Assembly (NCBI GenBank): GCA_040757335.1
Contig: JBFLXB010000003.1
Coordinates: 53,899-117,898 of the forward strand
Reading direction: 5' to 3'
DNA: 64,000 bases
DNA from: Nitrospirota bacterium
Lineage (GTDB): Bacteria; Nitrospirota; Nitrospiria; 2-01-FULL-66-17
Shown here: piece after piece, positions 39,388 to 62,242 of the stretch
Layout: each line of letters opens with the position of its first letter
Numbering within the stretch: the first letter of the stretch is position 1
Position numbers and translations under genes: made by a program
The notes under the pieces: model-generated
The model's database searches: none
Told to the model about the DNA's origin: nothing
Seen by the model: the letters and a program-made list of their open reading frames with translations, nothing else

Positions 39388-39504
39388 ACTCGCGCGCCCG
39401 TTCAGGAACGCGTCAGATGCAAGGCGGAGCGAGCGCCCGCACCGCAGCGTACTGGGTCGTACGTGAGGAGCGGACGCGCAGCGACAACGCAGCAGATGAT
39501 CGTT
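39388..39504. repeat. interspersed ~118-bp TIR-bearing repeat, copy C (minus orientation)
   Basis: cccgttcaggaacgcgtcagatgcaaggcgg...cgcagcagatgatcgttcatggacggg is the reverse complement of the copy B/D/E consensus. Confidence 0.8.
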
Positions 39505-39563
39505 CATGGACGGGTGCTGCCTAGGCCCTTCGCCCCAAGGCCGCGGTTAGGTCCTTTAGCCGC

Positions 39564-39627: not shown

Positions 39628-40017
39628 GTGGCGATGACTCCGGATTCCGTGCTCTCTACATACCTGGCGAACTACGGTCCAGTCGTCATCTTTATGGCGA
39701 TTGCGGCGGCGTTCGGGGCCGGGACGCTGGTCTTCAGCTACCTGATCCACCCGCGGATCTACTCCACCGAGAAGCTTTCGGCGTACGAGTGCGGGAGTGA
39801 GCCGATTTCCGACGCACGGATGCCGTTTCCGGTCCGCTACTACATCATCGCCATGTTGTTCGTGATCTTCGACGTGGAACTCGTGTTTCTCTATCCCTGG
39901 GCCGTGGCGTTCGACAAAATCGGCCTGTTCGGGTTGATCGAGATGATCATCTTCATCCTGCTGTTCGTCGCGGCCTACGCGTACGCCTGGCGCAAGGGAG
40001 CGTTGGAATGGGATTGA
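39628..40017 (+). CDS. nuoA: NADH-quinone oxidoreductase subunit A
   Basis: 3-TM protein with YECG and PFPVRYY motifs. Confidence 0.85.
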
Positions 40018-40538
40018 TCAACATCACGCCGAGCGCGGGCGACGGCAAGACCGGGGACGTGGGGTTCGTCACCCTCAAGCTGGAGCAGGCCGTCAACTGG
40101 GCCCGCAAAGGCTCGTTGTGGCCCATGACGTTTGGGCTGGCGTGCTGCGCCATCGAGATGATCGCGGCGGTGTCGTCGCGTTACGACATGGACCGCTACG
40201 GCGCCGGGGTGTTTCGCGCCTCGCCGCGACAATCCGACCTGATGATCGTCGCCGGCACGGTTTGCCGCCGCATGGCGCCCGTGATCCGCAAGGTGTACGA
40301 CCAGATGCCCGAGCCCAAATACGTGATCGCGATGGGCTCGTGCGCCACGTCGGGCAACATCTACAACAGCTACCCGGTGGTCCAGGGCGTTGACCGCTTC
40401 GTGCCGGTGGATATCTACGTGCCGGGTTGCCCGCCGACGCCGGAGGCGTTGTTCGACGGGATTTTGCGGCTGCAAGAGAAGATCATGAAGCAGCGGGTGT
40501 TTGTTCAACGCGAAACATACGGGGCCATTAAAGCCTGA
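40008..40538 (+). CDS. nuoB: NADH-quinone oxidoreductase subunit B
   Basis: Contains the [13 protein letters not shown] and PGCPP N2-cluster ligand motifs. Confidence 0.9.
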
Positions 40539-41053
40539 TGCATCCGGTTGCTGAACAGATCAAAGCCAAGTTCCCCGAGACGTTCGTGCGGGCCACGGAG
40601 TTTCGCGGGGATTGGGCGGTGGAGGTCACGCGTGAAGGGCTGTTGGAAGTCGCCCGGTTTTTGCGCCACGACCCCGCGATGGACTACGACTACATCGTAC
40701 ACGTCAGCTCCGTGGACTGGCTCGGCGAGCCCGTGCGGTTCGAAGTGGTGTGGGAGATTTACTCCGTACGGCGCCGGCACCGGATTCGACTCAAGACGCG
40801 CGTGCCCGAATCCGACCCGGTCGTGGAGTCGCTGACCGGGTTCTGGAAGGGCTGTGAGTTCATGGAGCGCGAAGTGTACGACATGATGGGCATCCGCTTC
40901 GCGCATCACCCGGACCATCGCCGAATCCTGATGCCCGATGACTACCCCGAGGGGTACCCCCTGCGCAAGGATTTCCCGCTGGTGGGCAAGGGTTGGCGCG
41001 ACACGTTTGACTTCATGGAAGGCGGCGCCCCGTCGCCGCCGCGTAACCCATGA
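40538..41053 (+). CDS. nuoC: NADH-quinone oxidoreductase subunit C (30 kDa)
   Basis: EREVYDMMGIRFAHHPD...PLRKDFP motif. ATGA overlap with nuoB. Confidence 0.85.
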   Translation: MHPVAEQIKAKFPETFVRATEFRGDWAVEVTREGLLEVARFLRHDPAMDYDYIVHVSSVDWLGEPVRFEVVWEIYSVRRRHRIRLKTRVPESDPVVESLTGFWKGCEFMEREVYDMMGIRFAHHPDHRRILMPDDYPEGYPLRKDFPLVGKGWRDTFDFMEGGAPSPPRNP

Positions 41054-42270
41054 CCACGCCGGTCCAAACTCCCCCTCACTCCCAGAAAAAGCTGCCGCTG
41101 CTGCGGACCGAAGAACTCATGCTCAACATGGGACCGCAGCACCCCAGTACCCACGGCGTGTTGAAGGTCGTGCTGGAGTTGGAAGGCGAGCGGATCATGA
41201 AGGCCACGCCGGTGATGGGCTTCCTGCATCGTGGTGTGGAAAAGCTCGCCGAAGACGGAACCTATCACCAGTTCATCCCGCACACGGATCGGCTCGACTA
41301 CGTGTGCGCGATGTACAACAACTTTGCCTACGTCCGGGCCGTTGAGAAGCTCATGGGGATCACGGTCCCTCCGCGCGCCGAATACCTCCGTACCGTCGTC
41401 GCCGAAGTGCAACGGATCATCGGGCATCTGTTCTGGCTCGGCACCCAGGCCCTCGACATCGGCGCGATGACCGTGTTCTTCTACACGTTTCGCGACCGCG
41501 AGGAGCTGCTCGATTTCTTCGACAAGCTGTGCGGCGCGCGGCTGACCACGAGTTGGTATCGGATCGGCGGGGTGGAGCGCGACTTTACGCAGGATCTGAT
41601 CGACCAGCTCTACGCGTTCATCAAGACCTTTCCGCCCAAGATCGAGGAGTACAACGTGCTTCTCGAAAAGAACCGGATCTGGATGGCGCGCACCAGGGGA
41701 ATCGCCGTGATCTCGGCCGAAGACGCGTTGAGTTTCGGCCTGTCCGGTCCCACGTTGCGCGGCTCCGGGGTGGAGTACGATCTGCGCAAGGCCGAGCCCT
41801 ACGGCGCGTACGCCGACGTGGAATGGAGCGTGCCGATCGGCACCAACGGCGATACCTACGACCGGTATTGGGTGCGCATCGAGGAACTCAAAGAGAGCAG
41901 CAAAATCATCCGGCAGTGTCTGGACAGGCTGCCGGACGGGCCCATCATGGCCGATGTGCCTCAGGTCGTGGCGCCGACCAAGGACCGGGTGTTCAACAAC
42001 CTTGAGAGCATGATCATGCAGTTCAAGTTCTTTTCCGTGGGCTTTCCCACGCCCAAGGGGGAGATCTACTGTGGGACCGAGGCGCACAAGGGCGAACTGG
42101 GCTTCTACATCGTCAGCAACGGCGAGGGCAAGCCGTACCGGCTCAAGATCCGCGCGCCCTCGTTCATCCATATGGGCGCGTTCGACTATATGTCGCGGGG
42201 CTATATGATCGCCGATATCGTCACGATTTTTGGGACGTATGACATTGTTATGGGGGAGTGCGACCGGTGA
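41050..42270 (+). CDS. nuoD: NADH-quinone oxidoreductase subunit D (49 kDa)
   Basis: MLNMGPQHPSTHGVL...C-terminal DIVMGECDR. Confidence 0.9.
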   Translation: MTTPVQTPPHSQKKLPLLRTEELMLNMGPQHPSTHGVLKVVLELEGERIMKATPVMGFLHRGVEKLAEDGTYHQFIPHTDRLDYVCAMYNNFAYVRAVEKLMGITVPPRAEYLRTVVAEVQRIIGHLFWLGTQALDIGAMTVFFYTFRDREELLDFFDKLCGARLTTSWYRIGGVERDFTQDLIDQLYAFIKTFPPKIEEYNVLLEKNRIWMARTRGIAVISAEDALSFGLSGPTLRGSGVEYDLRKAEPYGAYADVEWSVPIGTNGDTYDRYWVRIEELKESSKIIRQCLDRLPDGPIMADVPQVVAPTKDRVFNNLESMIMQFKFFSVGFPTPKGEIYCGTEAHKGELGFYIVSNGEGKPYRLKIRAPSFIHMGAFDYMSRGYMIADIVTIFGTYDIVMGECDR

Positions 42271-42272
42271 TC

Positions 42273-42393
42273 GCCTGTCCATCAACGGCCATCTGCGGCG
42301 TTGTCGCTGCGCGTCCGCTCCTCACGTACGCACCCAGTACGCTGCGGTGCGGGCGCTCGCTCCGCCTTGCATCTGGCGCGTTGCTGAACAGGC
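42273..42393. repeat. interspersed ~118-bp TIR-bearing repeat, copy D (plus orientation)
   Basis: Begins 3 nt after the nuoD stop. cgcctgtccatcaacgg...gcgttgctgaacaggcg. Confidence 0.8.
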
Positions 42394-42414
42394 GCCGCTA
42401 CGCGGATTGGAAAG

Positions 42415-45189
42415 ATGGCTGAAGAGTTAATTTCAATTACCACGGACAAACCTGCGGTCCAGCTCACGATCGACAACGAAGTCGTCAATGTGCCGGAGGG
42501 GACGTCGATCTACGACGCGATCGTGGGGATGGGCAAGACTATCCCGAGCATGTGTTACCACTACACGTTCAATCCCTTTGGGTCCTGCGGCGTGTGTCTG
42601 GTCGAGGTCGAGGGGAAGAAGGCGCCGGTGCGATCGTGTACGTCGCCGGTTGCCGCGGGAATGATCGTGCGCGTGGACACCAAGGCCATGTTCGACGCGC
42701 GCAAAAAGGCGGTCGAGAAACACCTGCAGACGCATCCGCTCGATTGCCCGGTGTGCGACGCGGACGGACACTGCGAGCTGCAGGACATGAGCTTCAACTT
42801 CGGCATCGTCCAGATCGGCGAGGTCAAGCAAAAGGGGTTGCCCGAAGATCGGCGCAGCACCGTGCTCGATTTCAACATGAACCGGTGTATCCTGTGCGCG
42901 CAATGCATCAACATCTGCAAAGAAGTGGTCATGGTGGACGCCCTGCAGTTTTTCAAGAAGGGCGGCTTCACGCACGTGGTGGCCAAGGGCGACAAGGCCC
43001 TGGAGTGCGAATTTTGCGGCGACTGCCTGGCGGTGTGCCCGGTGGGCGCGATCACCAACAAGTTCTCCAAGTATCTCTACAAACCGTGGCAGCTCAAGCG
43101 GACCGTGACCGCGTGCAACTACTGCGCGGACGGCTGCCAGATGCGCGTCGAGGTCAAGGACGACGCGGTGGTGCGCGTGACGTCGCTGCTCTCCTGGAAG
43201 GACAAGTGGGACGACCACACTGCGACTGTGGACGGCCACGGCGGGTTGTGCGTCAGGGGGAGGTTCGGGTTCGCGTACATCAATAGCCCCGAGCGCCTGA
43301 AGAAACCGCTGATTCGCAAGGACGGCCGACTCGTGGAGGCGTCGTGGTTCGAATCGACCAACGAAGTCGTCAGCCGGCTGAAGGCGATCAAGGCCCAACA
43401 CGGCCCCGACGCCGTCGCCGGGTTGATCACCGCCCGGTGTACGAACGAGGATCTCTACGCGTTCCAGCGGTTCATGCGGCAGGTGGTGGGCACGAATCAA
43501 GTGGATTCGAGCAGCCGCTACGGCCACGCGGTCTACGTGGAGGCGATGGAGCGCGCGTTGGGCGTGGTGCAGCCCACGGTCTCGTTCCGCGACCTCACGC
43601 TCGCGCGCGCGATTCTGGTCGTCGGGTCGGACGTGACCGAGACCAATCCCATCACGGCGCTGCGGATCAAGGACGCGTTCAGCAATTTCCACAGCCAGTT
43701 GATCGTCGCGCATTCGATGCAGACCAATTTGGCCAAGCTGGCGCCGTATCCCTATCAAATTGCGGTGGCTTCGGAGGGTGCATTCATCCAGGGCTTGACC
43801 AAGGCCGTGCTGGAGGGGGAATTGGTCCCGTCCCGCGTCGTCAATGAGCACGGGACGGCGCTGAGTGCGCTCAAAACCGCGGTTGGGACTCTGTCGTGGG
43901 ATGCGCTGTGTGCCGCAACCGGCCTCTCTCGCGAGGCGTTCACCGAAGCCGCCCGAGTCTTCATGTCGGACGGTTCGCGCGTGATCGTGCTCGGCGAGCA
44001 GATCGTGGATCGGCCGGACGCGTACGCCAACGTGTTGCGGGTCGCCGACCTCATGCTGGCCGCCGGGATGGTGGGACAACGTGGTTCGGGCGTGCTGCGC
44101 TTGTGTGAAGAGAACAACGAGCGCGGCGCGGTGGCGGTGGGCGCGATGGCGGATCGGCTGCCCGGCGGATCCCGGTACGGCGACGTTGCGGCGCGGGCCA
44201 AAGTCGAGACCGCGTGGGGCGGCGGGCTGCCGAACGGTGGGGCGACGCTGACCGAGATTCTCGACGGGATCCGCGCGGGCCGAATCAAGGCGTTGTACGC
44301 CGTGGGCGAAAACCCGTTGGGGACGTTGCCCTCGAATGCGGACGTGCGCGACGCGTTGACGAAGCTCGATCTGGTGATCGTGCAGGACGCGTTTCTGACC
44401 GAAATGGGTGACGTCGCCCACATCGTGCTACCGGCCGCACTGGCGGCCGAGAAGGACGGGACGTTCCTGGACGGACAGGGGAAACTGCAGCCGGTCGTAC
44501 GGGCGCTGGATGCTCCGGGTGAGGCTCGAAGTGATTGGGAGATTTTTTCGGAACTGGGCCAGCTCATGGGCGCGCCGTTCGATTACACGGCGCCGGAGGA
44601 AATCCGGCGCGAATTGCTCCAGATCGCGCCGGGGGTGTTCGAGATGCCGACGCCGGTCGCGCGGCGCGACGACCGGGCGACCGACCTGACGGCTCGGTAC
44701 GCGCAGCCAGCAGTGGCTGGCGACGCGCCCAGCAAGGAGTATCCCTTCGACCTGTCGCTCTACCAGGTGCTCTATCATTCGGGCAAGATGTCCACCCGAG
44801 ACAAAGGGCTGCTCGAAATCCATGCCAAGAAGCTGCTACAAATCTCGGCGAAAGACGCCGAAGCGCTGGGCGTCACTGATGGCGGCCGGGTGAAGGTCAC
44901 CTCGCCGTATGGGTCGGTCGAGGTCGGCGTCGAAATCAGCCTCGACCTCCCGAACGGATCGTGTCGGTTTCCCGAACACTTCAACGACCCGGCAGTGAGA
45001 GATCTGTTGCCAATGCGCGTAGATCCGGTGAGCAAGGCGCCGGTGTTCAAGTCGGGACGGGTGCGGATCGAGAAAGTCGCCCCCCCACCCGGCCCTCCCC
45101 CGCAAGGGGGGAGGGTGGAAAATCACACCGTGACCATTCCCTCCCCCTTGACGGGGGAGGGCGAGGGAGGGGGTGTGTCCGGCGCATGA
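42415..45189 (+). CDS. nuoG: NADH-quinone oxidoreductase subunit G-like (2Fe-2S, 4Fe-4S, molybdopterin-oxidoreductase fold)
   Basis: N-terminal 2Fe-2S region (CYHYTFNPFGSCGVCLV), His-ligated HPLDCPVCDADGHC, then two 4Fe-4S motifs. Long MoCo-like domain. The last ~35 codons are encoded by GC hairpin repeats. Confidence 0.8.
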   Translation: MAEELISITTDKPAVQLTIDNEVVNVPEGTSIYDAIVGMGKTIPSMCYHYTFNPFGSCGVCLVEVEGKKAPVRSCTSPVAAGMIVRVDTKAMFDARKKAVEKHLQTHPLDCPVCDADGHCELQDMSFNFGIVQIGEVKQKGLPEDRRSTVLDFNMNRCILCAQCINICKEVVMVDALQFFKKGGFTHVVAKGDKALECEFCGDCLAVCPVGAITNKFSKYLYKPWQLKRTVTACNYCADGCQMRVEVKDDAVVRVTSLLSWKDKWDDHTATVDGHGGLCVRGRFGFAYINSPERLKKPLIRKDGRLVEASWFESTNEVVSRLKAIKAQHGPDAVAGLITARCTNEDLYAFQRFMRQVVGTNQVDSSSRYGHAVYVEAMERALGVVQPTVSFRDLTLARAILVVGSDVTETNPITALRIKDAFSNFHSQLIVAHSMQTNLAKLAPYPYQIAVASEGAFIQGLTKAVLEGELVPSRVVNEHGTALSALKTAVGTLSWDALCAATGLSREAFTEAARVFMSDGSRVIVLGEQIVDRPDAYANVLRVADLMLAAGMVGQRGSGVLRLCEENNERGAVAVGAMADRLPGGSRYGDVAARAKVETAWGGGLPNGGATLTEILDGIRAGRIKALYAVGENPLGTLPSNADVRDALTKLDLVIVQDAFLTEMGDVAHIVLPAALAAEKDGTFLDGQGKLQPVVRALDAPGEARSDWEIFSELGQLMGAPFDYTAPEEIRRELLQIAPGVFEMPTPVARRDDRATDLTARYAQPAVAGDAPSKEYPFDLSLYQVLYHSGKMSTRDKGLLEIHAKKLLQISAKDAEALGVTDGGRVKVTSPYGSVEVGVEISLDLPNGSCRFPEHFNDPAVRDLLPMRVDPVSKAPVFKSGRVRIEKVAPPPGPPPQGGRVENHTVTIPSPLTGEGEGGGVSGA
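45093..45161. repeat. two 23-nt GC hairpins with an identical 9-bp stem (ccctccccc/gggggaggg) embedded in the nuoG 3' end
   Basis: 45093-45115 ccctccccc-gcaag-gggggaggg and 45139-45161 ccctccccc-ttgac-gggggaggg. Confidence 0.6.
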
Positions 45190-45737
45190 CGCTCAAGGAA
45201 CTTTTCGATAAGGCGGTGATGACCGAGATCTTGGACGGCTTGAAGACCACGTTCAAGCACATGTTCGTGAAGCCCGTGACCTTCCAGTATCCGCACGAGA
45301 AACGCGAGATACCCGACACGCATCGGGGCGCGCTGTGCCTGTTGCGGTACGACGACGGCAAGGAACGCTGCGTGGGCTGCGATCTCTGCGAGGCGGCCTG
45401 CCCCTCGCGCTGTATCAAAGTCGTGAGCGAAGAGGACCCCGAGACCCCGCTGCGCCGGATCGCGACGGAATTTTATATCGACATCACCAAGTGCGTGTTT
45501 TGTGGGTTCTGCGTGGAGGCGTGCCCGGTCAATGCGCTCGGCATGACCAAGATGTACGAGTACTCCACGACGAATAAGCGCGATTTGATGTTCGACAAGG
45601 CTCGGCTCTACCAGATCGGCGATCAGTTGCTCGCCGACGCCAAGAAGTACCTCGTTGCGCACCACCAGGAAGAGAGCGACGAGGCCGCCCGCCAGTACCG
45701 CTACAAGTTCCCCTACGCCACCGCCAGGAAGGGCTGA
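45186..45737 (+). CDS. nuoI: NADH-quinone oxidoreductase subunit I (2x[4Fe-4S] ferredoxin)
   Basis: CVGCDLCEAACP and CVFCGFCVEACP. ATGA overlap with nuoG. Confidence 0.85.
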   Translation: MTLKELFDKAVMTEILDGLKTTFKHMFVKPVTFQYPHEKREIPDTHRGALCLLRYDDGKERCVGCDLCEAACPSRCIKVVSEEDPETPLRRIATEFYIDITKCVFCGFCVEACPVNALGMTKMYEYSTTNKRDLMFDKARLYQIGDQLLADAKKYLVAHHQEESDEAARQYRYKFPYATARKG

Positions 45738-45745
45738 TTGGGCGG

Positions 45746-46378
45746 ATGAGCGCGGTCGCTTTCTACTACCTCGCCGCGGTCACCATTGTGACCGGCGTGC
45801 TCGCCATCACGCTGCGCAGTCCCGTGCACTGCGGCCTGTCGCTGGTCGCGATGCTCATCCACATGGCCGGCTTCTTCGTCCTGCTGAACGCCGAATTCAT
45901 CGCGGCGGTCCAGGTGATCGTGTACGCGGGCGCGATCCTGGTCCTCTATTTATTCGTGATCATGCTCTTGAACCTCAAGAGCGACGAGCGGGTGTTCCAC
46001 AAACGCTATATCGGCATCGGGCTCATCACCATCGCGATCATCACCCAGGTGGCGATCCTGGTATTTCGCTCGCCGTATGCCGGGATGACGGGCGACGCGA
46101 CCCCGGAGGTCGTGCTGGGGGTGGGACAGACCAAGGCGATCGGGATCGTCATGTTCCGCGACTACCTGTTGCCGTTCGAGCTGATCGGCCTCTACCTCCT
46201 CGCAGCGATCGTAGGCGCGATCGTGCTGGCCAAGACGCCCGCGGCATCGGATCGGCCCGCGCTGGCCGAGGGAGACCGGTTGCCGCTTGGGACGGGGGAT
46301 GGCGACGGGTTGCCGAGTGCGGCATCCGAGGAGACAGCGGAGACCGTCGGCGGCCACCATGGAGGCCACGGTCCCTGA
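45746..46378 (+). CDS. nuoJ: NADH-quinone oxidoreductase subunit J
   Basis: 5-TM ND6-like protein with a low-complexity C-terminal tail. Confidence 0.8.
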   Translation: MSAVAFYYLAAVTIVTGVLAITLRSPVHCGLSLVAMLIHMAGFFVLLNAEFIAAVQVIVYAGAILVLYLFVIMLLNLKSDERVFHKRYIGIGLITIAIITQVAILVFRSPYAGMTGDATPEVVLGVGQTKAIGIVMFRDYLLPFELIGLYLLAAIVGAIVLAKTPAASDRPALAEGDRLPLGTGDGDGLPSAASEETAETVGGHHGGHGP

Positions 46379-46683
46379 TGACGATCACGCTGACCCACTA
46401 CCTCGTCGTCAGCACGATCATCTTTTCACTCGGGCTTCTCGGCGTGCTGATCCGCCGCAATTTCATCATCGTGCTCATGGCCGTGGAAATGATGCTCAAC
46501 GCCGCCAATCTCAATCTGGTGGCGTTTTCGCACTACCTCAATTCCCTCACCGGCCAGATGGTCGCATTGTTTACGATCGCCATTGCCGCGGGCGAGGCCG
46601 CGGTGGGGCTCGCCATCATCGTGGTGATTTTCCGCGGCAAGATCGCGACCAATGTGGATCAGATCAATCTCCTGAAATGGTGA
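46378..46683 (+). CDS. nuoK: NADH-quinone oxidoreductase subunit K
   Basis: 101-aa 3-TM ND4L-like protein (LMAVEMMLNAANLNLVAFS). ATGA overlap with nuoJ. Confidence 0.85.
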   Translation: MTITLTHYLVVSTIIFSLGLLGVLIRRNFIIVLMAVEMMLNAANLNLVAFSHYLNSLTGQMVALFTIAIAAGEAAVGLAIIVVIFRGKIATNVDQINLLKW

Positions 46684-46717
46684 GACCGACCTCCGTCAAT
46701 CCCGGAAATCCCCCCAT

Positions 46718-46804
46718 CCCCCCTTTTTCAAAGGGGGGTAGAGGCGGGGCGGCTCCCGTGAATCTGTTGACCCTTCCTAGTATCCCCCCTTTGGAAAAGG
46801 GGGG
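46718..46804. repeat. two 21-nt hairpins (ccccccttt-NNN-aaagggggg) flanked by G-runs, in the nuoK-nuoL spacer
   Basis: 46718-46738 and 46784-46804. The loops are ttc and gga. Confidence 0.6.
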
Positions 46805-46833
46805 TGAGGGGGGATTTGGTTTTAAAACCTAGC

Positions 46834-48828
46834 ATGCTCTCCGTCGTCCTCATCCCGCTCCTGCCGCTGCTGGCCGTCCTCATCAACGGCGTGTTCGGCC
46901 GCCGGTACCTCAAAGAAGCCTCGCACTACTTCGCGGTAGGGTCGGTCGCGATCTCGTTCGTGCTGTCCATCTCGCTCTTGCTGCGCGTGATGGGCGGCGA
47001 TTCGCCGATCTCCGTTCCCATCTACTCGTGGATTTTTGGCGGAGGCCTCGATATCCACCTGGGATTCCTGATCGATCCGCTCTCCGCCGTGATGTTGATG
47101 GTGGTCACGGGCGTGGGGTTGCTGATCCACATCTATTCGATCGGGTACATGCACGGGGACCCCGGGTACTACCGCTTCTTCACGTACCTCAATCTGTTCA
47201 TGGTCTCCATGCTCCTGCTGGTGATGGGGGACAACTACCTGGTCCTCTTCATCGGGTGGGAAGGCGTGGGCCTGTGCTCGTACCTGTTGATCGCGTACTA
47301 CTTTGAGAAGGAATCCGCGACCAAAGCGGGCACCAAGGCGTTCGTGGTCAACCGCATCGGCGACGCGGGTTTTCTCGTCGCGATCTTTCTGATCATCCAG
47401 GAGTTCGGCACGCTGAACTATCTGGAAGTCTTCGACCGCGCCCACGAGCTGTCCACGGGCATGGCCACCGCGATCGCGTTGTGCCTGTTCATCGGCGCGA
47501 TCGGTAAATCCGCTCAGATCCCGCTGTACACGTGGTTGCCGGACGCGATGGAAGGTCCCACGCCGGTCAGTGCCTTGATCCACGCGGCCACCATGGTCAC
47601 CGCCGGGGTCTACATGGTAGTGCGCAACCACGCGATCTACGACCTGGCGCCGGTGGCGCTGACCACGGTGGCGGTCATCGGCGGGCTGACCGCGATCTTC
47701 GCCGCGACCATCGGCTTGGTCCAAACCGATATCAAGCGCGTGTTGGCCTACTCGACCGTGAGCCAGCTCGGGTACATGTTCCTGGGCTGCGGCGTAGGCG
47801 CGTACGCGGCCGCGATTTTCCACCTGGTTACACACGCGTTTTTCAAGGCGCTGCTGTTTTTGGGCTCCGGCAGCGTGATCCACGCGTTGGGCGGGGAGCA
47901 GGACATCCGCAAGATGGGCGGACTCAAGGCTGAGATTCCGGTGACTGCGCTGACGTTCTTAATCGGCACGATCGCGATCGCCGGGCTGCCTCCGTTGGCC
48001 GGGTTTTGGAGCAAAGACGAGATTCTTGGCATGGCGTTCAAGGGCGGGCACGGCGTGCTCTGGCTGATCGGCATGACCGGCGCATTCCTGACGTCGTTCT
48101 ACATGTTCCGCCTGTTCTATGTCACGTTCACCGGTACCACCAGGATGGACCACCACGTGGCGCAACACGTCCACGAGTCGCCCGGCGTGATGACCGTCCC
48201 GTTGATGATCCTGGCCGGGTTGTCGTTGCTCGGCGGGCTGATCCTGGGTGTCCCGCCCGAGGGCGGGTTGCTCCATGCTTTTCTCGCGCCGGTGGCATCG
48301 GCCGAGGGCGGGGAGGCGCACCACGGGTTCGGCGCCACTGACGTGGTCCTGATGGTCGCGTCCGTCCTCATTGCGCTGGGCGGCTGGTGGCTCGCGTACA
48401 CCATGTATGTGCGTCGTCCCGAGATGGCCGAGGCGTGGGCGCTGAAGTACGGGAATGCGCACCGTTTATTGCTGAACAAGTATTGGGTGGATGAGCTGTA
48501 CGATTTGCTGGTGGTCGAGCCGTCCAAGCGTCTCAGCGAGATCTGGGCGTGGTTCGACAACGTGGTGATCGACGGCGTGGTCCGCGGTGCGGCGCGCATG
48601 ACCCAGAGCAGTGCCTGGCTGTCGACCGCGATCGAGAAGTACGTTATTTATGGCTTCTTGAATGTGGTGGGCTACTCCAATCACTTGGGCGCGCGCACGT
48701 TCCGCCTCTTGCAGACCGGGTTTGTGCACCACTACGCGTTCATCCTGGTCATCGGCCTGGCGTTGATGGTGTATGTCTTCTGGTGGTGGAGCGGAGGCAG
48801 CGTGGCCGGCCTGCTGGCGCAGCGATGA
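46834..48828 (+). CDS. nuoL: NADH-quinone oxidoreductase subunit L (long form)
   Basis: ND5-like antiporter subunit, about 665 aa from MLSVVLIPLL. This is roughly 50 aa longer than E. coli NuoL (as recalled), which fits an extended lateral helix. Confidence 0.85.
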   Translation: MLSVVLIPLLPLLAVLINGVFGRRYLKEASHYFAVGSVAISFVLSISLLLRVMGGDSPISVPIYSWIFGGGLDIHLGFLIDPLSAVMLMVVTGVGLLIHIYSIGYMHGDPGYYRFFTYLNLFMVSMLLLVMGDNYLVLFIGWEGVGLCSYLLIAYYFEKESATKAGTKAFVVNRIGDAGFLVAIFLIIQEFGTLNYLEVFDRAHELSTGMATAIALCLFIGAIGKSAQIPLYTWLPDAMEGPTPVSALIHAATMVTAGVYMVVRNHAIYDLAPVALTTVAVIGGLTAIFAATIGLVQTDIKRVLAYSTVSQLGYMFLGCGVGAYAAAIFHLVTHAFFKALLFLGSGSVIHALGGEQDIRKMGGLKAEIPVTALTFLIGTIAIAGLPPLAGFWSKDEILGMAFKGGHGVLWLIGMTGAFLTSFYMFRLFYVTFTGTTRMDHHVAQHVHESPGVMTVPLMILAGLSLLGGLILGVPPEGGLLHAFLAPVASAEGGEAHHGFGATDVVLMVASVLIALGGWWLAYTMYVRRPEMAEAWALKYGNAHRLLLNKYWVDELYDLLVVEPSKRLSEIWAWFDNVVIDGVVRGAARMTQSSAWLSTAIEKYVIYGFLNVVGYSNHLGARTFRLLQTGFVHHYAFILVIGLALMVYVFWWWSGGSVAGLLAQR

Positions 48829-50450
48829 TGGAGCAGGTGTTCGCGGCGCAGCAGCTCGGATTCCCGATCCTCACCATCGTCACGTTCCTGCCGTTGGCCG
48901 GGGCGCTCGTGGTCTGGGCGCTGCGCGACGAAGCGATTGCCTGGAAAGTCGGGTTCGCGGTGGCGGCGGCCGACTTCGCGTTCAGCCTGCCCGTGTTTTT
49001 CGCGTTCACGCTCGACTCGTCGGCGATGCAGTTCGTGGAGCGGTACGCGTGGATTCCCGTTATCGGCGTGAGCTATCACGTCGGCGTGGACGGGATCAGC
49101 ATGCTGTTCGTGGTGCTGACCACGCTGCTGGGGTTCTTGATCGTGGTCTACGCGTCCGGGGTCGTGACGGAGCGCGTGCGCGGTTTCCTCATGGCGCTTT
49201 TCGCGTTGCAGACCACGATGTTGGGCGTGTTTGTCTCGCTGGATCTTGTGTTGTTTTTCCTGTTCTGGGAACTGATGCTGATCCCCTCGTACTTCATGAT
49301 TCGGCTGTGGGGCACCGAAGGCAAGGAGTACGCCGCGATCAAGTACGTGGTCTACACCCTATTGGGCAGCGTGCTGATGCTGGTGGGGATCGTGATCTTG
49401 TACCTGCAGCACTACCGGTTCGCGTCGATCCATGGTCTGGCCCCCGCGTTGTCGTTCGATCTGCTCGATCTGTTGCGGACGCCGATGTCCCTGGAAGTCC
49501 AGCTGGCGATCTTCGTGTTTCTCTTTTTCGGGTTCGCGTTCAAGACGCCGATCATTCCGTTTCACACCTGGATGCCTGATGCGCTGTATTCGGGGCCCAT
49601 CGCGATGAGTGTGATCCTGGCCGGTGTCAAGCTGGGAACGTTCGGGTTCGTGCGCTACTCGTTGCCGCTGGTGCCGGACGCGGCTCGTGCCGCGCTCCCG
49701 GTGATGATGGTGCTCGGGTTGATCGGCATTCTCTACGGTGCGTACATCGCGCTGATGCAGGCCGACTTCCGCAAGCTGTTGGCGTATTCCTCGATCAGCC
49801 ACCTCGGGTACGTGGCGCTCGGGATCTTCGCGCTGACGTACCAAGGGATCCAGGGAGGGCTGATCCAGATGATCAACCTCGGGATCTCGACCGCGGGGCT
49901 GTTCTTCTTCGCAGGCTTTCTCTGGACCCGGCGGCAGACGTTGACCATCGCGGAGTTCGGCGGGCTGGCCAAGACCACGCCCGTGCTGGCCACGTTTTTC
50001 CTCATCATGGTGCTCTCATCGATCGGCCTGCCGGGCACCAACGGGTTCATCGGGGAGTTCCTGATCCTGTTCGGCGCATTCAAAGCGCACTGGATCTACG
50101 GCGCGGTCGGGGTGCTGGGCGTGATCCTCGGCGCCGCGTACATGCTGTGGTTTTACGAACGCGCCGTTTTCGGCGCCGTGACTAAGGCCGTCAATGAACG
50201 CTTGCCGGACCTGGGCGGGCGTGAACTGGCGATTGCGCTGCCGCTGGTCGCGCTGGTCTTCTGGATCGGCGTGTATCCGTCGCCGTTTTTGCATCGGATC
50301 AACGGCTCGGTCGAGTCCCTGCACGCGCGGTTGCAGCCCAAAGCCGCCCTGTCAGCCACCGTTGGGGTTTCGCCTGATCAGGACGCGCTTTCTCCCCCTC
50401 TCCCAGTCGCCCCCTCTCCCCCTCGTCTTGCTTCTTCCGGGGCCCCGTGA
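48825..50450 (+). CDS. nuoM: NADH-quinone oxidoreductase subunit M (copy 1)
   Basis: ND4-like protein with a Pro/Ala-rich C-terminal tail. ATGA overlap with nuoL. Confidence 0.85.
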   Translation: MMEQVFAAQQLGFPILTIVTFLPLAGALVVWALRDEAIAWKVGFAVAAADFAFSLPVFFAFTLDSSAMQFVERYAWIPVIGVSYHVGVDGISMLFVVLTTLLGFLIVVYASGVVTERVRGFLMALFALQTTMLGVFVSLDLVLFFLFWELMLIPSYFMIRLWGTEGKEYAAIKYVVYTLLGSVLMLVGIVILYLQHYRFASIHGLAPALSFDLLDLLRTPMSLEVQLAIFVFLFFGFAFKTPIIPFHTWMPDALYSGPIAMSVILAGVKLGTFGFVRYSLPLVPDAARAALPVMMVLGLIGILYGAYIALMQADFRKLLAYSSISHLGYVALGIFALTYQGIQGGLIQMINLGISTAGLFFFAGFLWTRRQTLTIAEFGGLAKTTPVLATFFLIMVLSSIGLPGTNGFIGEFLILFGAFKAHWIYGAVGVLGVILGAAYMLWFYERAVFGAVTKAVNERLPDLGGRELAIALPLVALVFWIGVYPSPFLHRINGSVESLHARLQPKAALSATVGVSPDQDALSPPLPVAPSPPRLASSGAP

Positions 50451-52036
50451 TGCTCGACCAGCACCTCTTGTCGATCATTCTGTTCGCGCCGTTCGTCGGC
50501 GCCGCCGTGCTCTTGTTCGTCGACGGCAAGAAGTTGATGCAGGTTCGCGTGATCGCGGCGGTTTCCAGCGGGATCTCGTTCGTCGCGTCGGTGTACCTGT
50601 TGTACGCCTTCAACTACGCGCCCGGGTCGCCGCAGTTTCAGTTCCTCGAACAGTACGAGTGGTCGAAGGACCTGGGGATTTCGTTCTTCCTGGGCGTGGA
50701 CGGCATGTCGGTGCCGCTCGTGCTGGCGTCGTCGGTGTTGTTGTTCGCGGGGGTGTTCGTGTCGTGGCACATCGAAGACCGGGCGCGCGAGTTCTATATC
50801 TTCCTGCTGATCCTGGCGTCCGCAACGATCGGCGTGTACGTCTCGCTGGACCTCTTCTTCCTCTACTTTTTCTACGAGATGTCGGTGTTGCCCATGTATC
50901 CGCTCTTGGGCGTGTGGGGCAGCCACACCAAGGGCTACCTGGAGATGAAGGACACGGCCAAACGCGACTCCGTGGGCTTCATTTTCAACTTCGCGTCCAA
51001 CAGCAAGGAATACGCCGCGATGAAGCTGACGTTGTTTCTGTCGGCCGGCGCGGTGGTGGCGTTGCTGGGGATCTTCCTGACCTATGTGGGCACCGGCCTC
51101 AACACGTTCAACCTCATCGAACTGCAGGGTCACGAGCAGCAGTTTTCGCCCGTGATGCGCAGCGTGATCTGGCTGCTGCTCTTTTTCGGGTTCGCCTCGA
51201 TCGCGCCTCTCTGGCCCATGCACTCGTGGTCTCCGGTGGGCCACGCGGCCGCGCCCGCCGCGGTGTCCATGCTGCACGCGGGCGTGCTGATGAAGCTCGG
51301 GCATTTTTCGATCATCCGCGTCGCGTACTGGCTGTTCCCCCAGACCACCCAGGAGTGGGCGTTCCTGATCGCGATCCTGTGCGTGTTCTCGATCATCTAC
51401 GGCGGACTGGTGGCGTTCTTCCAGCGCGACACCAAATACGTGATCGGCTACTCCAGCTCCAGTCACATGGGCTACATCTTCCTGGGGATGGCCGCGCTCA
51501 ACATGATCAGCATGACCGGCGCCGTGCTCTACATGTTTGCGCACGCGCTGGCCACGGGGATGCTCTTTGCCATGGCCGGCTGGGTGTACGACCAGACCCA
51601 CACGCGGGATATCCCCTCGCTGGGCGGCCTGGGCCAGAAGATGCCGTTCATCATGGGCGCGTTCGTCGTGGCCCTGGTGGCTTCGGTGGGGCTGCCGGGC
51701 ACCGTCAACTTCATCGGCGAGCTGATGATCCTATCCGGGAGTTGGGAGCAGTATCCCGTCCAGGTGGTGATCGCCGTGATCGGCATCGTCATCACCCTCG
51801 CGTATCTGATGCGGATGTTCATCGGATTGTTCCTGGGCGACATGCAGCCCAAGTGGGCGCACGCCGGCGACGCGCGCTGGATCGACCGCGTGCCTTTGCT
51901 CATCATGATCTTCGGGAGCCTGTACTTTGGGTTGTTCCCCAGCCAGTTCATCCACGTGATCAGCGCGGGCATGCAGCCGATCCTGGAACAAATTAACGCG
52001 GCGGGCGCAGTAGCCTCCGCCGGGGGCGGAGGCTAG
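50447..52036 (+). CDS. nuoM: NADH-quinone oxidoreductase subunit M (copy 2, divergent paralog with an internal insertion)
   Basis: ND4-like protein. Insertion GSHTKGYLEMKDTAKRDSVGFIFNFASNSKEYAAMK. Start overlaps the nuoM copy 1 stop. Confidence 0.8.
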   Translation: MMLDQHLLSIILFAPFVGAAVLLFVDGKKLMQVRVIAAVSSGISFVASVYLLYAFNYAPGSPQFQFLEQYEWSKDLGISFFLGVDGMSVPLVLASSVLLFAGVFVSWHIEDRAREFYIFLLILASATIGVYVSLDLFFLYFFYEMSVLPMYPLLGVWGSHTKGYLEMKDTAKRDSVGFIFNFASNSKEYAAMKLTLFLSAGAVVALLGIFLTYVGTGLNTFNLIELQGHEQQFSPVMRSVIWLLLFFGFASIAPLWPMHSWSPVGHAAAPAAVSMLHAGVLMKLGHFSIIRVAYWLFPQTTQEWAFLIAILCVFSIIYGGLVAFFQRDTKYVIGYSSSSHMGYIFLGMAALNMISMTGAVLYMFAHALATGMLFAMAGWVYDQTHTRDIPSLGGLGQKMPFIMGAFVVALVASVGLPGTVNFIGELMILSGSWEQYPVQVVIAVIGIVITLAYLMRMFIGLFLGDMQPKWAHAGDARWIDRVPLLIMIFGSLYFGLFPSQFIHVISAGMQPILEQINAAGAVASAGGGG

Positions 52037-52155
52037 CCTGTCCATGAAGGACCATCTGCGGCGTTGCCGCTGCGCATCCGGTGCTCACGTACGCACCCAG
52101 TACGCTGCGCTCCGGTGCTCGCGGCGCCTTGCATCTGGCCCGTTCCTGAACAGGC
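52036..52155. repeat. interspersed ~118-bp TIR-bearing repeat, copy E (plus orientation)
   Basis: gcctgtccatgaaggacc...cccgttcctgaacaggc. Begins at the nuoM copy 2 stop. Confidence 0.8.
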
Positions 52156-52191
52156 TTGTAGGGGCACGACATTGGATGGATATCTAGGCCA

Positions 52192-53658
52192 ATGGAATTC
52201 ACACTGACCATCTCGTTTGCCGACCTGCTCTTGATGCTCCCGGAGCTCTTGCTCACGGGATTGATCGGTGTCGTCCTCTTCATCGACTTTACCTTCACCA
52301 AGGTCAGCAAGAACTCCCTGGCTTGGATCACGGTCGCTGGCCTGTGCGGTATTCTGGCGAGTCTGGTGTGGATGTGGGCCGCGGGCGTCCAAGGGGCGTT
52401 GTTCAAGCAGACCTTCGTGCTCGATCCGTTCGCGGTGTTCTTCAAAATCGTGGTGGTGCTGGCGACGATCTTGATCGTGCTGGCGTCGCTCGACTACATC
52501 AAGCGCATCGTCTTGTTCCGCGGCGAGTACTACCTCATGGTCATGTTGTCGGCGTTGGGGATGCTGTTCATGGCGTCGTCCAACGACCTCCTGACCATGT
52601 TCATCACCATCGAGTTCTCCACGTTCGGCTTCTACATTCTGGTGGCCTATTTGCGCGAGGACGATCTTCGATCCAGCGAGGCGGGTTTGAAGTACTTCGT
52701 CCTGAGCGTCTTCACCGCCGCGGTGATGGTGTTCGGGATCAGCCTGATTTACGGCGAGACCGGCACGATCATTTTCCCCGAGATCGCGGCGGCACAGCCG
52801 GTCCTGACCGGCGGTTTGATCATCGGGTTCCTCTGCTTGTTGGTGGGCCTGGGATTCAAGATCGGCGCGTTCCCGTTCCACAACTGGATTCCTGATATCT
52901 ACCAGGGCGCGCCGACCCCGATCACCGCCTACCTGGGGATCGCCCCCAAAGCCGCGGCATTAGCGATCGTGCTGAGGGTGTTCTTTTCAACCTTCGGCCA
53001 GTTCAAGCCCGAGTGGGTGTGGCTGGTGATCGGCATGGCTGCGTTGTCCATGACCTACGGGAACGTGGTGGCCATTGCGCAGACCGACATCAAGCGCATG
53101 CTCGCGTATTCCGGCATCGCGCAGATGGGCAATATGCTGATCGGCCTCGCGGCCGGGACCAAAATGGGCGGCGACTCGGTGATGTTCTACCTGCTGACGT
53201 ACCTGGTGGCCAACATCGGGGCGTTCGCCGTGGTCATCGTCTTCTCCAACCTGACGGGCAGCGATCGCATCGAGGACTACCGAGGCCTGGCCCGCCGCGC
53301 GCCGCTGTTGGCCGCGGCGATGTTGGTCTTTCTGCTTTCGCTCGCCGGCGTCCCGCCGTTGGCGGGCTTCATCGCGAAGATCTACGTGTTCACGGCGGCC
53401 ATGAAGCAGGGGTTGATCGTGCTGGTCTGTATCGGCTTGGTCAACATCGTGATCTCGATGTACTACTACCTCGTCATCGTGAAGAGGATGTACATCAACG
53501 AGCCCACGGACCGTCGCCCGATCCCGATGTCGGCTCCGATGCAGGCCGTGGTCTACACCACGCTCGCGGGCACCGTGATCCTCGGCATCTACCCCAAGCC
53601 CTTCATCGAGTGGGCGGTCTCCTCCACCGCCCTGTTCGCGCACCTCGTCGGGCCGTAA
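52192..53658 (+). CDS. nuoN: NADH-quinone oxidoreductase subunit N
   Basis: ND2-like 14-TM protein. Confidence 0.85.
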   Translation: MEFTLTISFADLLLMLPELLLTGLIGVVLFIDFTFTKVSKNSLAWITVAGLCGILASLVWMWAAGVQGALFKQTFVLDPFAVFFKIVVVLATILIVLASLDYIKRIVLFRGEYYLMVMLSALGMLFMASSNDLLTMFITIEFSTFGFYILVAYLREDDLRSSEAGLKYFVLSVFTAAVMVFGISLIYGETGTIIFPEIAAAQPVLTGGLIIGFLCLLVGLGFKIGAFPFHNWIPDIYQGAPTPITAYLGIAPKAAALAIVLRVFFSTFGQFKPEWVWLVIGMAALSMTYGNVVAIAQTDIKRMLAYSGIAQMGNMLIGLAAGTKMGGDSVMFYLLTYLVANIGAFAVVIVFSNLTGSDRIEDYRGLARRAPLLAAAMLVFLLSLAGVPPLAGFIAKIYVFTAAMKQGLIVLVCIGLVNIVISMYYYLVIVKRMYINEPTDRRPIPMSAPMQAVVYTTLAGTVILGIYPKPFIEWAVSSTALFAHLVGP

Positions 53659-60382: not shown

Positions 60383-61114
60383 TTATCGTCGGATCCCGCA
60401 CGCCCGCGCGACGCCGTCTCGGTATGCGAGCCACAGATCGAGCGAACGCTCCATGGCGTGTACGACGCGCTCCTGGGCTTCAGGAGCGGTTGCGTAGTCC
60501 ATCACCATCTTCCAGGCGTCCCGGCGGTGGAGCCCTTCGACGGCTCCGTGCGCGCGGGCCAGCTCCAAGTACCGCGGAGCCACGTGATGGTACTTCACCA
60601 GCGGGTGTTCGGCGATCTTTCGCTCGATATCGGGTTCCTCCCGGACCGTGCCGTTCAACACCGCACGCTCGTGGACGCTCCCCTCGACAAAGATCGTGGC
60701 GACCGCCGCGCCCTCGATCCACGAGGCCGTGGTGGTGACTTGGTCAAGCCATCGCCGATAGGCCGCGCTTTCGGGCAGCAATTCAACGGTGTCGAAGTCC
60801 TGGGGGGAAAACCCGAGGCCTTCCATCAGATACAGGAAGAGGTCGGGGTGGGCGCGCCCGCGGGTCAGCCCGCCGGTTTCTTCCTCGTACAGGTTCTCGG
60901 CGAGCGCCCGCCGAACCGGAGTGGGCGGGTTCTTGCCGTGCACGCGGGCCAGAAAAACGGGGAAATCGCGGACGTAGACCGCGTACTCCTGTTGGAAGTG
61001 GGTCTTGAGTTGATCGACGGTGACCGCGCCGGTCGCGAACGCGTTCCACGCCCAGTGGTCCTTGTGATCCATCACGTTCAACAACCGCTCTCGAAACGCA
61101 TCGTGCGTCGTCAT
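60383..61114 (-). CDS. heme-oxygenase-like fold protein (TenA/PqqC family)
   Basis: ERLLNVMDHKDHWAWNAF...QQEYAVYVRDFPVFL is the typical TenA/PqqC helical core. Start at MTTHD. Confidence 0.5.
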   Translation of the reverse strand: MTTHDAFRERLLNVMDHKDHWAWNAFATGAVTVDQLKTHFQQEYAVYVRDFPVFLARVHGKNPPTPVRRALAENLYEEETGGLTRGRAHPDLFLYLMEGLGFSPQDFDTVELLPESAAYRRWLDQVTTTASWIEGAAVATIFVEGSVHERAVLNGTVREEPDIERKIAEHPLVKYHHVAPRYLELARAHGAVEGLHRRDAWKMVMDYATAPEAQERVVHAMERSLDLWLAYRDGVARACGIRR

Positions 61115-61236
61115 ACCGGTCCTCCGTGCCCTTCGATGTGCGGACGTCATTGTAACACAGCGCTGTGAGAAGCCGTGCGCGCCGACCATCACGATGTCCA
61201 GTCGGTCGCCTGGAAATGACCGGCGCGGGATCTGTG

Positions 61237-61266
61237 TTGACAAACGTTTTCCGCGCGGCATACAAT
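61237..61266 (+). promoter_or_regulatory. sigma70 promoter (TTGACA-N18-TACAAT) immediately upstream of the DsrE-like gene. Implies a leaderless or very short-leader transcript
   Basis: -10 hexamer ends 5 nt before the ATG at 61272. Confidence 0.35.
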
Positions 61267-61271
61267 TCGCC

Positions 61272-61610
61272 ATGAAAATCGGTATCTTGCTGACCACCGG
61301 CAGCGATCATGAGAACGGATACCTCGTGGGGAAATTGTCGGAGGCGTGGCTGAAACAGGGCCACGAAGTCGACCTGTTTCTGATGGGGGAGGGCGTGTAT
61401 CACGCGCAGGCCATCGCGTCTCCCAAGCGACCCTACGCGGCGATGCCGGCGTTGCTGGCCCTGGGTGCCAAGGTTGCCGTGTGTGGCGTGACCGCGGAGG
61501 CGCGGGGCGTGTCCGAAACCGACCTATATCCCGGGATTGAAATCGCAAGTCAGTACGAGCTGTCCCGCATCGTGGACCGAGCCGATCGGTTCCTCACCTT
61601 CGGCGACTGA
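61272..61610 (+). CDS. DsrE/TusD-like sulfur-relay protein
   Basis: MKIGILLTTGSDHENG...VAVCGVTAE. DsrE/DsrF-like family with a conserved Cys. Confidence 0.6.
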   Translation: MKIGILLTTGSDHENGYLVGKLSEAWLKQGHEVDLFLMGEGVYHAQAIASPKRPYAAMPALLALGAKVAVCGVTAEARGVSETDLYPGIEIASQYELSRIVDRADRFLTFGD

Positions 61611-61616
61611 TCGACG

Positions 61617-61961
61617 GTGAAAGGCGTGGTGGTGGCCGTCCGGAGCAGCCCCCTGACCACGGGGCGGGTTCATGAAGCGCTGCGGATGGCACTCGGAATG
61701 ACGCTCTCGAATCACCGCGTCACGGTGGTATACACGGGCGACGGTGCGTCTGCCGCGCTGACGCTGAACGGCGAAATCCTGCATCGCCCGGGGCTCGCCG
61801 AGTCGCTGGAGCTGCTGGACGCGTGCCAGATTCGAGAGGTGGTCGAGCGGGAGGCGTTGGCGCCCGGCAACCGATCCGCCCTGCGAAAACGCGTGGAACT
61901 TTTGGATCGCGACGCCGTAGTCGGGCTGCTCGCGGCGTCGGATGTGGTGATTGCATGGTAG
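61617..61961 (+). CDS. DsrF/TusC-like protein
   Basis: VVVAVRSSPLTTGRVHEALRMALGMT is DsrE/F fold. Confidence 0.5.
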   Translation: MKGVVVAVRSSPLTTGRVHEALRMALGMTLSNHRVTVVYTGDGASAALTLNGEILHRPGLAESLELLDACQIREVVEREALAPGNRSALRKRVELLDRDAVVGLLAASDVVIAW

Positions 61962-62218
61962 CCGGCCGTGCGCTCCATATCGTCCGACGGCGAGCGGACG
62001 GTCTGGCCATGTCCGTGATCGCCGCCCAGAGCGGCGTGCGACCGGTTGAGGTGGTATTGGTCCAGGACGGGGTCTTCGCCGACATTCCCCCGCCACTCGC
62101 GGTCTGCGTCAATGACGAGGACGTGGTCGCGCGCGGTATCGACACGCGGTATCGGCGGGTGGGATACGACGAGATCGCAGAAATGGTCTGTGACGCCGTC
62201 TGCGTCACGGTGTGGTGA
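61955..62218 (+). CDS. DsrH/TusB-like small protein
   Basis: 88 aa. Third gene of a DsrEFH-like triplet. ATG overlaps the preceding stop. Confidence 0.4.
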   Translation: MVAGRALHIVRRRADGLAMSVIAAQSGVRPVEVVLVQDGVFADIPPPLAVCVNDEDVVARGIDTRYRRVGYDEIAEMVCDAVCVTVW

Positions 62219-62242
62219 CGCGGGACGAACCGCAGAGAAAGG

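Follow-up and report, generated by a model that had tools for sequence, protein, structure and literature searches.

Nitrospira moscoviensis encodes a complex I, CI_1, which Mundinger et al. 2019 (PMC6606698) describe as a member of clade 3 of the 2M type (Chadwick et al. 2018, ISME J 12:2668). CI_1 lacks nuoH, nuoE and nuoF, has an enlarged nuoG and is expressed above the median, and the same paper states the hypothesis that it carries electrons from quinol to ferredoxin. The NuoL of the Nitrospira 2M complex has an insertion in lateral helix HL that is similar in length and position to the 26-amino-acid (aa) insertion of MrpD2 (Yu et al. 2022, PMC9040806). In 2025, 2M complexes with separate NuoC and NuoD were reported for all cultivated Nitrospiraceae and UBA8639 genomes, and the canonical nuo operons of Nitrospirales were described as having a fused NuoCD (PMC12342949). 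We analysed 64,000 nucleotides from a Nitrospirota bacterium (contig JBFLXB010000003.1; this whole 64-kb stretch is called the window below), in which 12 co-directional genes on the plus strand, nuoA-B-C-D-G-I-J-K-L-M1-M2-N, span positions 39628-53658. Judged by its architecture and collinearity against the class as summarised in PMC6606698, the cluster is an intact copy of the known Nitrospirota clade 3 2M complex I.

The operon is like that of N. moscoviensis CI_1 in its tandem divergent nuoM genes, long NuoL with an HL insertion of ~26 aa, separate nuoC and nuoD, missing nuoE, nuoF and nuoH, and enlarged NuoG. It is unlike the Nitrospirales 2M operons in subunit identity (51-85%), in a lineage-specific 122-nt repeat that occupies its spacers and in a 34-aa read-through tail of nuoG. 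NUO-2 of Nitrospina gracilis and its homologue in Kuenenia stuttgartiensis (Lucker et al. 2013, PMC3578206) likewise have a NuoG with clusters N1b, N4, N5, N7 and one additional [4Fe-4S] motif, and the same role in quinol-to-ferredoxin reverse electron transport was proposed for them, but they keep nuoH, have NuoE and a modified NuoF2, and their description mentions no duplicated NuoM. In Complex_I_3 of Candidatus Manganitrophaceae (PMC9040806) two NuoM and a single NuoN are relatives of the Nitrospira 2M subunits, and the 26-aa HL insertion is present, yet its NuoL is replaced by two MrpD-like subunits to make five pump modules, whereas the cluster here has a genuine NuoL and four modules. 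Two MrpD-like subunits also stand in place of NuoL in the 'green' complex I of rhizobia, unlike the single genuine NuoL with PF00662 in this cluster. Canonical complex I (E. coli Nuo, T. thermophilus Nqo) shares with it the quinone-module core and the key residues of NuoL, NuoM1 and NuoN; the differences are the lack of NuoE, NuoF and NuoH in the operon, the extra NuoM, an HL that is 27-29 residues longer and a NuoG that resembles FdsA, the formate dehydrogenase alpha subunit, and carries an extra [4Fe-4S] motif. The window therefore holds no new kind of system but a clean, complete example of a described one from a sister lineage outside Nitrospirales, and only the residue-level observations on NuoM2, NuoM1 and the NuoG-like subunit are potentially new.

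Gene content and conservation of the cluster

All 12 open reading frames (ORFs) are intact and have a coding-type codon composition, with G+C contents at third codon positions (GC3) of 0.77-0.92. Proteins of the E. coli K-12 nuo operon were searched against the window with tblastn (E ≤ 1e-3), and a counterpart was found for every subunit, at 25-59% identity, except NuoE, NuoF and NuoH, for which there was no match anywhere in the 64 kb. A hidden or fused NuoH was ruled out, as PF00146 is absent from all ORFs of the cluster and tblastn gave no match. The canonical set of 14 subunits, with NuoE, NuoF and NuoH encoded together with the others, is thus not present within the 64 kb. Where a canonical operon has nuoE and nuoF, between nuoD and nuoG, there is a spacer of 144 nt that is wholly taken up by a repeat element.

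NuoB, NuoC, NuoD and NuoI belong to the core of the quinone module, whose N2 and quinone-site residues lie in NuoB and NuoD, and NuoA, NuoJ and NuoK are channel subunits. The cluster opens with nuoA (39628..40017; 129 aa; PF00507, E = 2e-38; 32% identical to E. coli NuoA), nuoB (40008..40538; 176 aa; PF01058; 59% identical to E. coli NuoB, with the N2 ligands CC-x-C-x-C), nuoC (40538..41053; 171 aa; PF00329, E = 1e-40) and nuoD (41050..42270; 406 aa; PF00346, E = 2.5e-115), the last two being separate ORFs that overlap by 4 nt. A NuoG-like gene (42415..45189) is followed by nuoI (45186..45737; 183 aa; Fer4 families, two CxxCxxCxxxCP motifs, 40% identical to E. coli NuoI), nuoJ (45746..46378; 210 aa; PF00499) and nuoK (46378..46683; 101 aa; PF00420, Glu37 and Glu73 kept), and the antiporter-like genes nuoL, nuoM1, nuoM2 and nuoN complete the set. 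Overlaps of 1-10 nt at the A/B, B/C, C/D, G/I, J/K, L/M1 and M1/M2 junctions indicate translational coupling at most junctions, and the cluster reads as one operon. The nuoJ product ends in a Gly/Asp/His-rich C-terminal tail of ~35 aa; from ORF lengths, NuoJ has 204-210 aa in the close clade described below versus 172-180 aa in Nitrospirales orthologues, which suggests that the longer form is clade-wide.

The original prediction, made from the sequence alone, had read this stretch as a 2M complex I with exactly this gene content and order, lacking nuoE and nuoF between nuoD and nuoG and any nuoH. Assignment of every ORF by Pfam and the tblastn result bear this out, and the features on which we place the cluster in the 2M class are all present: adjacent divergent nuoM genes, an HL insertion in a long NuoL, an enlarged nuoG homologue without nuoE, nuoF or nuoH, separate NuoC and NuoD, and collinearity with Nitrospira. 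The ATGA overlap that it had seen between nuoG and nuoI is real in the window sequence. Its description of a NuoG without NuoE, NuoF and NuoH as an atypical combination holds in comparison with canonical complex I only; otherwise this combination is the published signature of the clade 3 2M class.

A scan with one genome per species, using the NuoG-like protein as query, recovered 40 loci, all of them in Nitrospirota. The order A-B-C-D-G-I-J-K-L-M1-M2-N is the same in every locus that spans the cluster, NuoM1 and NuoM2 have distinct orthologues throughout, and tblastn found no homologue of NuoE, NuoF or NuoH within ±10 kb in any of the 40. Six loci form a close clade (NuoG 79-83% identical; NuoB, NuoD and NuoK up to 96-97%), and the other 34 come from Nitrospirales/Nitrospira, with subunits that are 51-85% identical. 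The close clade includes the metagenome-assembled genome (MAG) 'Nitrospirae bacterium RIFCSPHIGHO2_01_FULL_66_17', and as far as protein comparison places it the host is an uncultured MAG nearest to this one, in a sister lineage to, and outside, Nitrospirales. Following the GTDB naming convention, we take RIFCSPHIGHO2_01_FULL_66_17 to be the type of the placeholder order 2-01-FULL-66-17. That order is listed among 'other Nitrospiria' in PMC12342949. It is reported to have the reductive tricarboxylic acid (rTCA) cycle, which needs reduced ferredoxin, and no nitrite oxidation, and the lineage of the closest relatives is reported to use H2, sulfide or sulfite (PMC9802188).

Residue conservation in the quinone module and membrane arm

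The residues of the quinone module are invariant among the orthologues. This applies to NuoD His35, Tyr84 and Asp136, which align with H224, Y273 and D325 of E. coli NuoCD (40/40), to the five Cys of NuoB that include the N2 ligands (38 orthologues), to the eight cluster-motif Cys of NuoI (40/40) and to Glu37 and Glu73 of NuoK (39/39). This pattern argues that the complex retains quinone chemistry, so that NuoH would have to come from elsewhere.

NuoL (46834..48828; 664 aa; PF00662 and PF00361) shares 51% identity with its E. coli counterpart over 431 aa and keeps all of the canonical charged residues, which are invariant across orthologues. Its start is most likely the ATG at 46834 rather than the GTG at 46804, which would give 674 aa, because the 664-aa product is 100% identical to P0123 / NCBI MEW6681927.1, a 'Nitrospirota bacterium' MAG protein. 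Homologues of the same length include those of Ca. Nitrospira neomarina and Nitrospira sp. Kam-Ns4a. The protein exceeds E. coli NuoL (613 aa) by 51 aa, and when the two are aligned by MAFFT together with Nqo12 of T. thermophilus (sequence taken from the PDB alignment), ~26-29 of the extra residues fall inside the lateral-helix segment. Between the VDELYD motif and the LQTGF motif, which opens transmembrane helix (TM) 16, there are 74 aa here, as opposed to 45 in E. coli and 47 in T. thermophilus, and the segment is exactly 74 aa long in 39/39 NuoL orthologues. The insertion itself, GVVRGAARMTQSSAWLSTAIEKYVIY, lies at approximately 48574..48651 on the plus strand, with borders that depend on the alignment. 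In an AlphaFold2 model of NuoL (mean predicted local distance difference test score, pLDDT, 73), residues 549-624 of the 664-aa form make one continuous helix that is followed by TM16 at 632-652. By our own estimate, 27-29 residues in helical form would extend HL by about 40 Å, roughly the width of one extra subunit.

The two nuoM genes are adjacent, with nuoM1 (48825..50450; 541 aa; PF00361) overlapping the nuoL stop by ATGA and nuoM2 (50447..52036; 529 aa; PF00361) overlapping the nuoM1 stop by GTGA. NuoM1 and NuoM2 are 29% identical over 526 residues, and their best matches in the PDB are NuoM/ND4 chains, not NuoN or NuoL. Since NuoM1 scores 336 bits and NuoM2 235 bits against the same best chain, NuoM1 is, by sequence similarity, the more canonical paralogue and NuoM2 the divergent one. 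No 2M-type chain was among the PDB matches of NuoL, NuoM1 and NuoM2. A recent tandem duplication was ruled out, given this low identity and the presence of separate orthologues of each copy in all genomes. The prediction of two clearly divergent nuoM paralogues, rather than near-identical tandem copies, is in agreement with these values, as is that of a NuoL about 50 aa longer than the E. coli protein through an extended lateral helix, since alignment to canonical NuoL maps the insertion to HL. Four Nitrospirales chromosomes (L016, L021, L031 and L039) have an additional NuoM-like gene, ~42-44% identical to NuoM1, just upstream of the 2M operon.

All canonical charged residues are kept in NuoL, NuoM1 and NuoN (52192..53658; 488 aa; PF00361; 35% identical to E. 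coli NuoN). In NuoM1 the equivalents of E. coli E144, K234, K265 and E407 are invariant in orthologues, as are E141, K223, K253 and K396 in NuoN. NuoM1 has Leu at the positions of E. coli NuoM H248 and H348 in 39/39 sequences. In NuoM2 the TM7 Lys (E. coli NuoM K234) is replaced by Ile, again in 39/39; the TM5 Glu, TM8 Lys and TM12 Glu are kept, and extra invariant His residues are present where E. coli has L259 and A268. Aligned in this way, the two paralogues differ in complementary respects, NuoM2 having lost the TM7 Lys and gained His and NuoM1 having lost two His. A literature search on the residue patterns of NuoM1 and NuoM2, which did not extend to the primary 2M paper (Chadwick 2018), found nothing relevant.

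A degenerate molybdenum site and conserved iron-sulfur ligands in the NuoG-like subunit

The 924-aa NuoG-like protein contains the Pfam domains Fer2_4, NADH-G_4Fe-4S_3, Fer4_Nqo3, Molybdop_Fe4S4, Molybdopterin and Molydop_binding, and its related loci encode proteins of 883-926 aa (longest-ORF lengths). In the PDB it is matched best by alpha subunits of FdsA-type formate dehydrogenases (9wxb_B, 4e-112; 6tg9_A, 4e-107), while the strongest match to a NuoG/Nqo3 chain is 2e-76 (1e-47 for E. coli and 1e-43 for T. thermophilus), which places the protein nearer to FdsA-type formate dehydrogenase than to canonical NuoG on sequence similarity. The match to FdsA of Rhodobacter capsulatus (PDB 6TG9) covers residues 14-742; the five Fe-S motifs are shared and precede the molybdenum bis-pyranopterin guanine dinucleotide (Mo-bisPGD) domains, which come in the same order. 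The motifs predict one [2Fe-2S] and four [4Fe-4S] clusters, corresponding to N1b, N5, two in a ferredoxin-like domain and the N7/FS0 site, and 40/40 sequences keep every one of the 20 Fe-S ligands.

Unlike in FdsA, the active-site Cys is replaced by Gly: the Mo-ligand Cys386 of R. capsulatus FdsA aligns with the Gly of an RYGH motif in 39/39 sequences. His387 is kept, and the position of the catalytic Arg587 is unconserved (C/T/V/A). The gene also differs from fdsA in lying inside a nuo operon without FdsB and FdsG partners. A reading of the protein as a formate dehydrogenase was rejected because the Mo-ligand Cys is lost and the catalytic Arg unconserved, and the Mo-bisPGD site appears degenerate, or 'dead'. 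Invariant columns make up 72% of the 2x[4Fe-4S] ferredoxin-like domain, the most constrained part of the protein, versus 18-19% of the Mo domains; selection, as read from this contrast, acts on the electron wire and not on the catalytic Mo site.

In this genome only, nuoG reads through 34 extra codons (about 45088-45186) of a G/C hairpin repeat. The 39/39 orthologues stop ~34 residues earlier, and the ATGA overlap with nuoI is confined to this genome. The paired G/C-rich hairpins, CCCTCCCCC-loop-GGGGGAGGG (45081..45173, plus strand; repeat pair I5), lie in frame in the nuoG 3' tail, where they give the protein its 34-aa Pro/Gly-rich end and create the overlap.

Proposed function and alternatives

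We consider it probable that the cluster encodes a Nitrospirota 2M (clade 3) complex I that uses the proton-motive force (pmf) to drive electrons from quinol to ferredoxin, with NuoH supplied in trans. NuoL, NuoM1, NuoM2 and NuoN would make up a single membrane arm of four antiporter-like modules that the longer helix HL holds together, and with the fourth module the stoichiometry would rise to ~5 H+ per 2 e-. Another, canonical nuo operon in the genome would provide NuoH, a subunit that the quinone cavity cannot do without. As NuoE and NuoF, and hence an NADH/FMN site, are missing, electrons would enter or leave through the Fe-S chain of the NuoG-like subunit to a low-potential carrier, most likely ferredoxin; the partner may alternatively be a NuoF-like protein from an orphan gene, which was the suggestion made for N. 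moscoviensis (PMC6606698). In rTCA autotrophs the enzyme would run backwards, the pmf pushing quinol electrons to ferredoxin for 2-oxoglutarate and pyruvate synthases, and the extra pump module would provide additional energy for ferredoxin reduction. The link between the 2M complex and reverse electron transport comes from the literature, where it has the status of a hypothesis. The 2M complex I has on that proposal become the leading candidate for producing low-potential ferredoxin from high-potential electrons in Nitrospira-type rTCA autotrophs and, if this is true, would be an important link in the bioenergetics of nitrification.

Several observations weigh against this assignment of function. 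No nuoH was found in the 64-kb window, which is the only part of the genome that was searched, and no quinone channel is known for a complex that lacks this subunit. There is also no ferredoxin gene among the genes of the 64-kb window. AlphaFold2 confidence over the NuoL lateral helix is low (pLDDT 33-55), as is to be expected when such a helix is modelled in isolation. The TM7 Lys is required for the activity of canonical NuoM, as established by mutagenesis, and NuoM2 does not have it, so the fourth module may not be a standard pump, which in turn makes the figure of 5 H+ per 2 e- uncertain.

The residue patterns are compatible with a more specific version of quinol-to-ferredoxin transport, which we put forward tentatively. 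NuoM2, with a His-rich central axis that has lost the TM7 Lys of the Glu-Lys gating pair, and NuoM1, without two His of the lateral pathway, could have divided functions, with NuoM2 serving as a relay or altered-stoichiometry module. The occurrence of the operon in a lineage of Nitrospiria reported not to oxidise nitrite and the strong constraint on the 2x[4Fe-4S] domain of a NuoG that would be a former formate dehydrogenase would, taken together, tie the enzyme to the supply of ferredoxin for the rTCA cycle, not to nitrite oxidation as such.

The alternative that survives best is that the same enzyme works in the forward direction, as an oxidoreductase between ferredoxin (or another low-potential donor) and quinone, in which, by analogy with the ferredoxin-dependent NDH-1, pumping of a fifth proton would be paid for by the larger redox span. 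We regard this as a minority possibility. The architecture is silent on direction; the argument for reverse flow from a high-potential donor is also weaker for organisms whose closest relatives belong to a lineage reported to use H2, sulfide or sulfite and to lack nitrite oxidation (PMC9802188), and DsrE-like genes occur in the window (61194-63135). Autotrophs with the rTCA cycle nevertheless still need a route to reduced ferredoxin, no other ferredoxin-reducing system was reported in Nitrospira (PMC6606698), and the two directions are not mutually exclusive.

We find it unlikely that the cluster belongs to an NADH-linked complex I with NuoE and NuoF (and NuoH) encoded elsewhere, in which the role of the 2M arm would be to tune the H+/e- ratio to reverse electron transport to NAD+ instead of ferredoxin. 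An orphan, very highly expressed nuoF beside a ferredoxin gene was indeed suggested as the partner of CI_1 in N. moscoviensis (PMC6606698), and the NuoG-like subunit keeps the N-terminal NuoG/FdsA fold that docks NuoF-like partners in FdsABG. However, nuoE and nuoF are missing from the operon in all 40 loci while all else is collinear, and the same genomes have complete canonical nuo operons for NADH (PMC12342949, PMC7784846).

Very little speaks for a formate:quinone oxidoreductase with the FdsA-like 'NuoG' as its catalytic subunit, which we disfavour. The protein matches FdsA-type chains better than any NuoG (4e-112 versus 2e-76) with its Molybdopterin, Molydop_binding and Fe4S4 domains kept, and the related Kuenenia cluster was once tentatively annotated as a formate:quinone oxidoreductase (PMC3578206), but the Mo-ligand Cys/Sec position (FdsA Cys386) is Gly in 39/39, the Arg587 position varies among C/T/V/A and no part of the protein is less constrained than the Mo domain. 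The absence of nuoH from the window and all related loci could also point to an operon that is decaying or incomplete and hence non-functional. Conservation effectively refutes this reading, since the 12 ORFs are intact and identically ordered across 40 genomes spanning 51-96% identity, no cofactor ligand or key charged residue varies (the TM7 position of NuoM2 being an invariant Ile), and in N. moscoviensis transcription of the orthologous operon exceeds the median (PMC6606698).

Structural or mutational work on the 2M complex could take its lead from the strictly invariant positions, namely the Fe-S ligands, the dead Mo site, the loss of the TM7 Lys in NuoM2 and the 74-residue HL segment.

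Repeats and genomic neighbourhood

An imperfect palindrome of ~122 nt occurs in five copies in the 64 kb, at 11746-11886 (minus strand), 22661-22790 (plus), 39388-39520 (minus), 42268-42397 (plus) and 52031-52162 (plus). The copy at 39388..39520 (nhmmer E = 5e-38) lies in the 5' spacer upstream of nuoA and is not part of the enzyme, the copy at 42268..42397 fills the nuoD-nuoG spacer, and that at 52031..52162 (nhmmer E = 1.7e-40) occupies the nuoM2-nuoN spacer, an insertion found in this genome only. Inverted-repeat pairs (I1-I4) were detected in the copies, the predicted RNA fold has an energy of -66.5 kcal/mol (z = -4.1), and alignment shows compensating changes in the inner stem between copies. 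The whole window was scanned against Rfam at gathering thresholds without a match, so that the repeat belongs to none of the curated RNA families. It is confined to the close clade (also L002, L003, L004, L005 and L006), and the spacers that it occupies vary by genome: the D-G spacer in most of them, L005 excepted, the B-C and K-L spacers in L002, and the M2-N spacer in this genome alone. In L005 nuoD and nuoG abut without a spacer, and nuoM2 and nuoN are adjacent in L002, L005 and L006. Because different operon spacers are occupied in different genomes, this distribution suggests a mobile element of the repetitive extragenic palindromic (REP) or miniature inverted-repeat transposable element (MITE) kind that is tolerated inside the operon. 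Short G/C-rich hairpins make up a second class of repeat, to which the pair in the nuoG tail belongs; two of them, CCCCCCTTT..AAAGGGGGG (46706..46817, plus strand; repeat pairs I6 and I7), fill the nuoK-nuoL spacer.

A scan for promoters and terminators across the operon gave counts equal to chance and was hence uninformative, and a tRNA scan found no tRNA. The flanks of the operon are unrelated to it, with marC-trkH-trkA upstream and an M48 peptidase gene and comEC downstream, and the remaining window is ordinary chromosome (uppS-cdsA-dxr-rseP-ispG-proS, an RND efflux pump, znuABC and similar). Genes of the DsrE/DsrF-like, sulfur-relay type are present on the plus strand at 61194-61610, 61617-61961 and 62536-63135, and may have a bearing on the energy metabolism based on sulfur that is reported in this lineage. 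A gene of the haem-oxygenase-like/TENA family (60383-61297) adjoins them on the opposite strand. Two neighbouring genes on the minus strand at 10392-13911 encode proteins of unusual architecture: a radical-SAM/SPASM protein whose C-terminal domain is PCP_red (protochlorophyllide reductase 57 kD C-terminal), and a 679-aa protein that has two Usp (universal-stress-protein) stretches, three PCP_red repeats and a rubredoxin-like domain.

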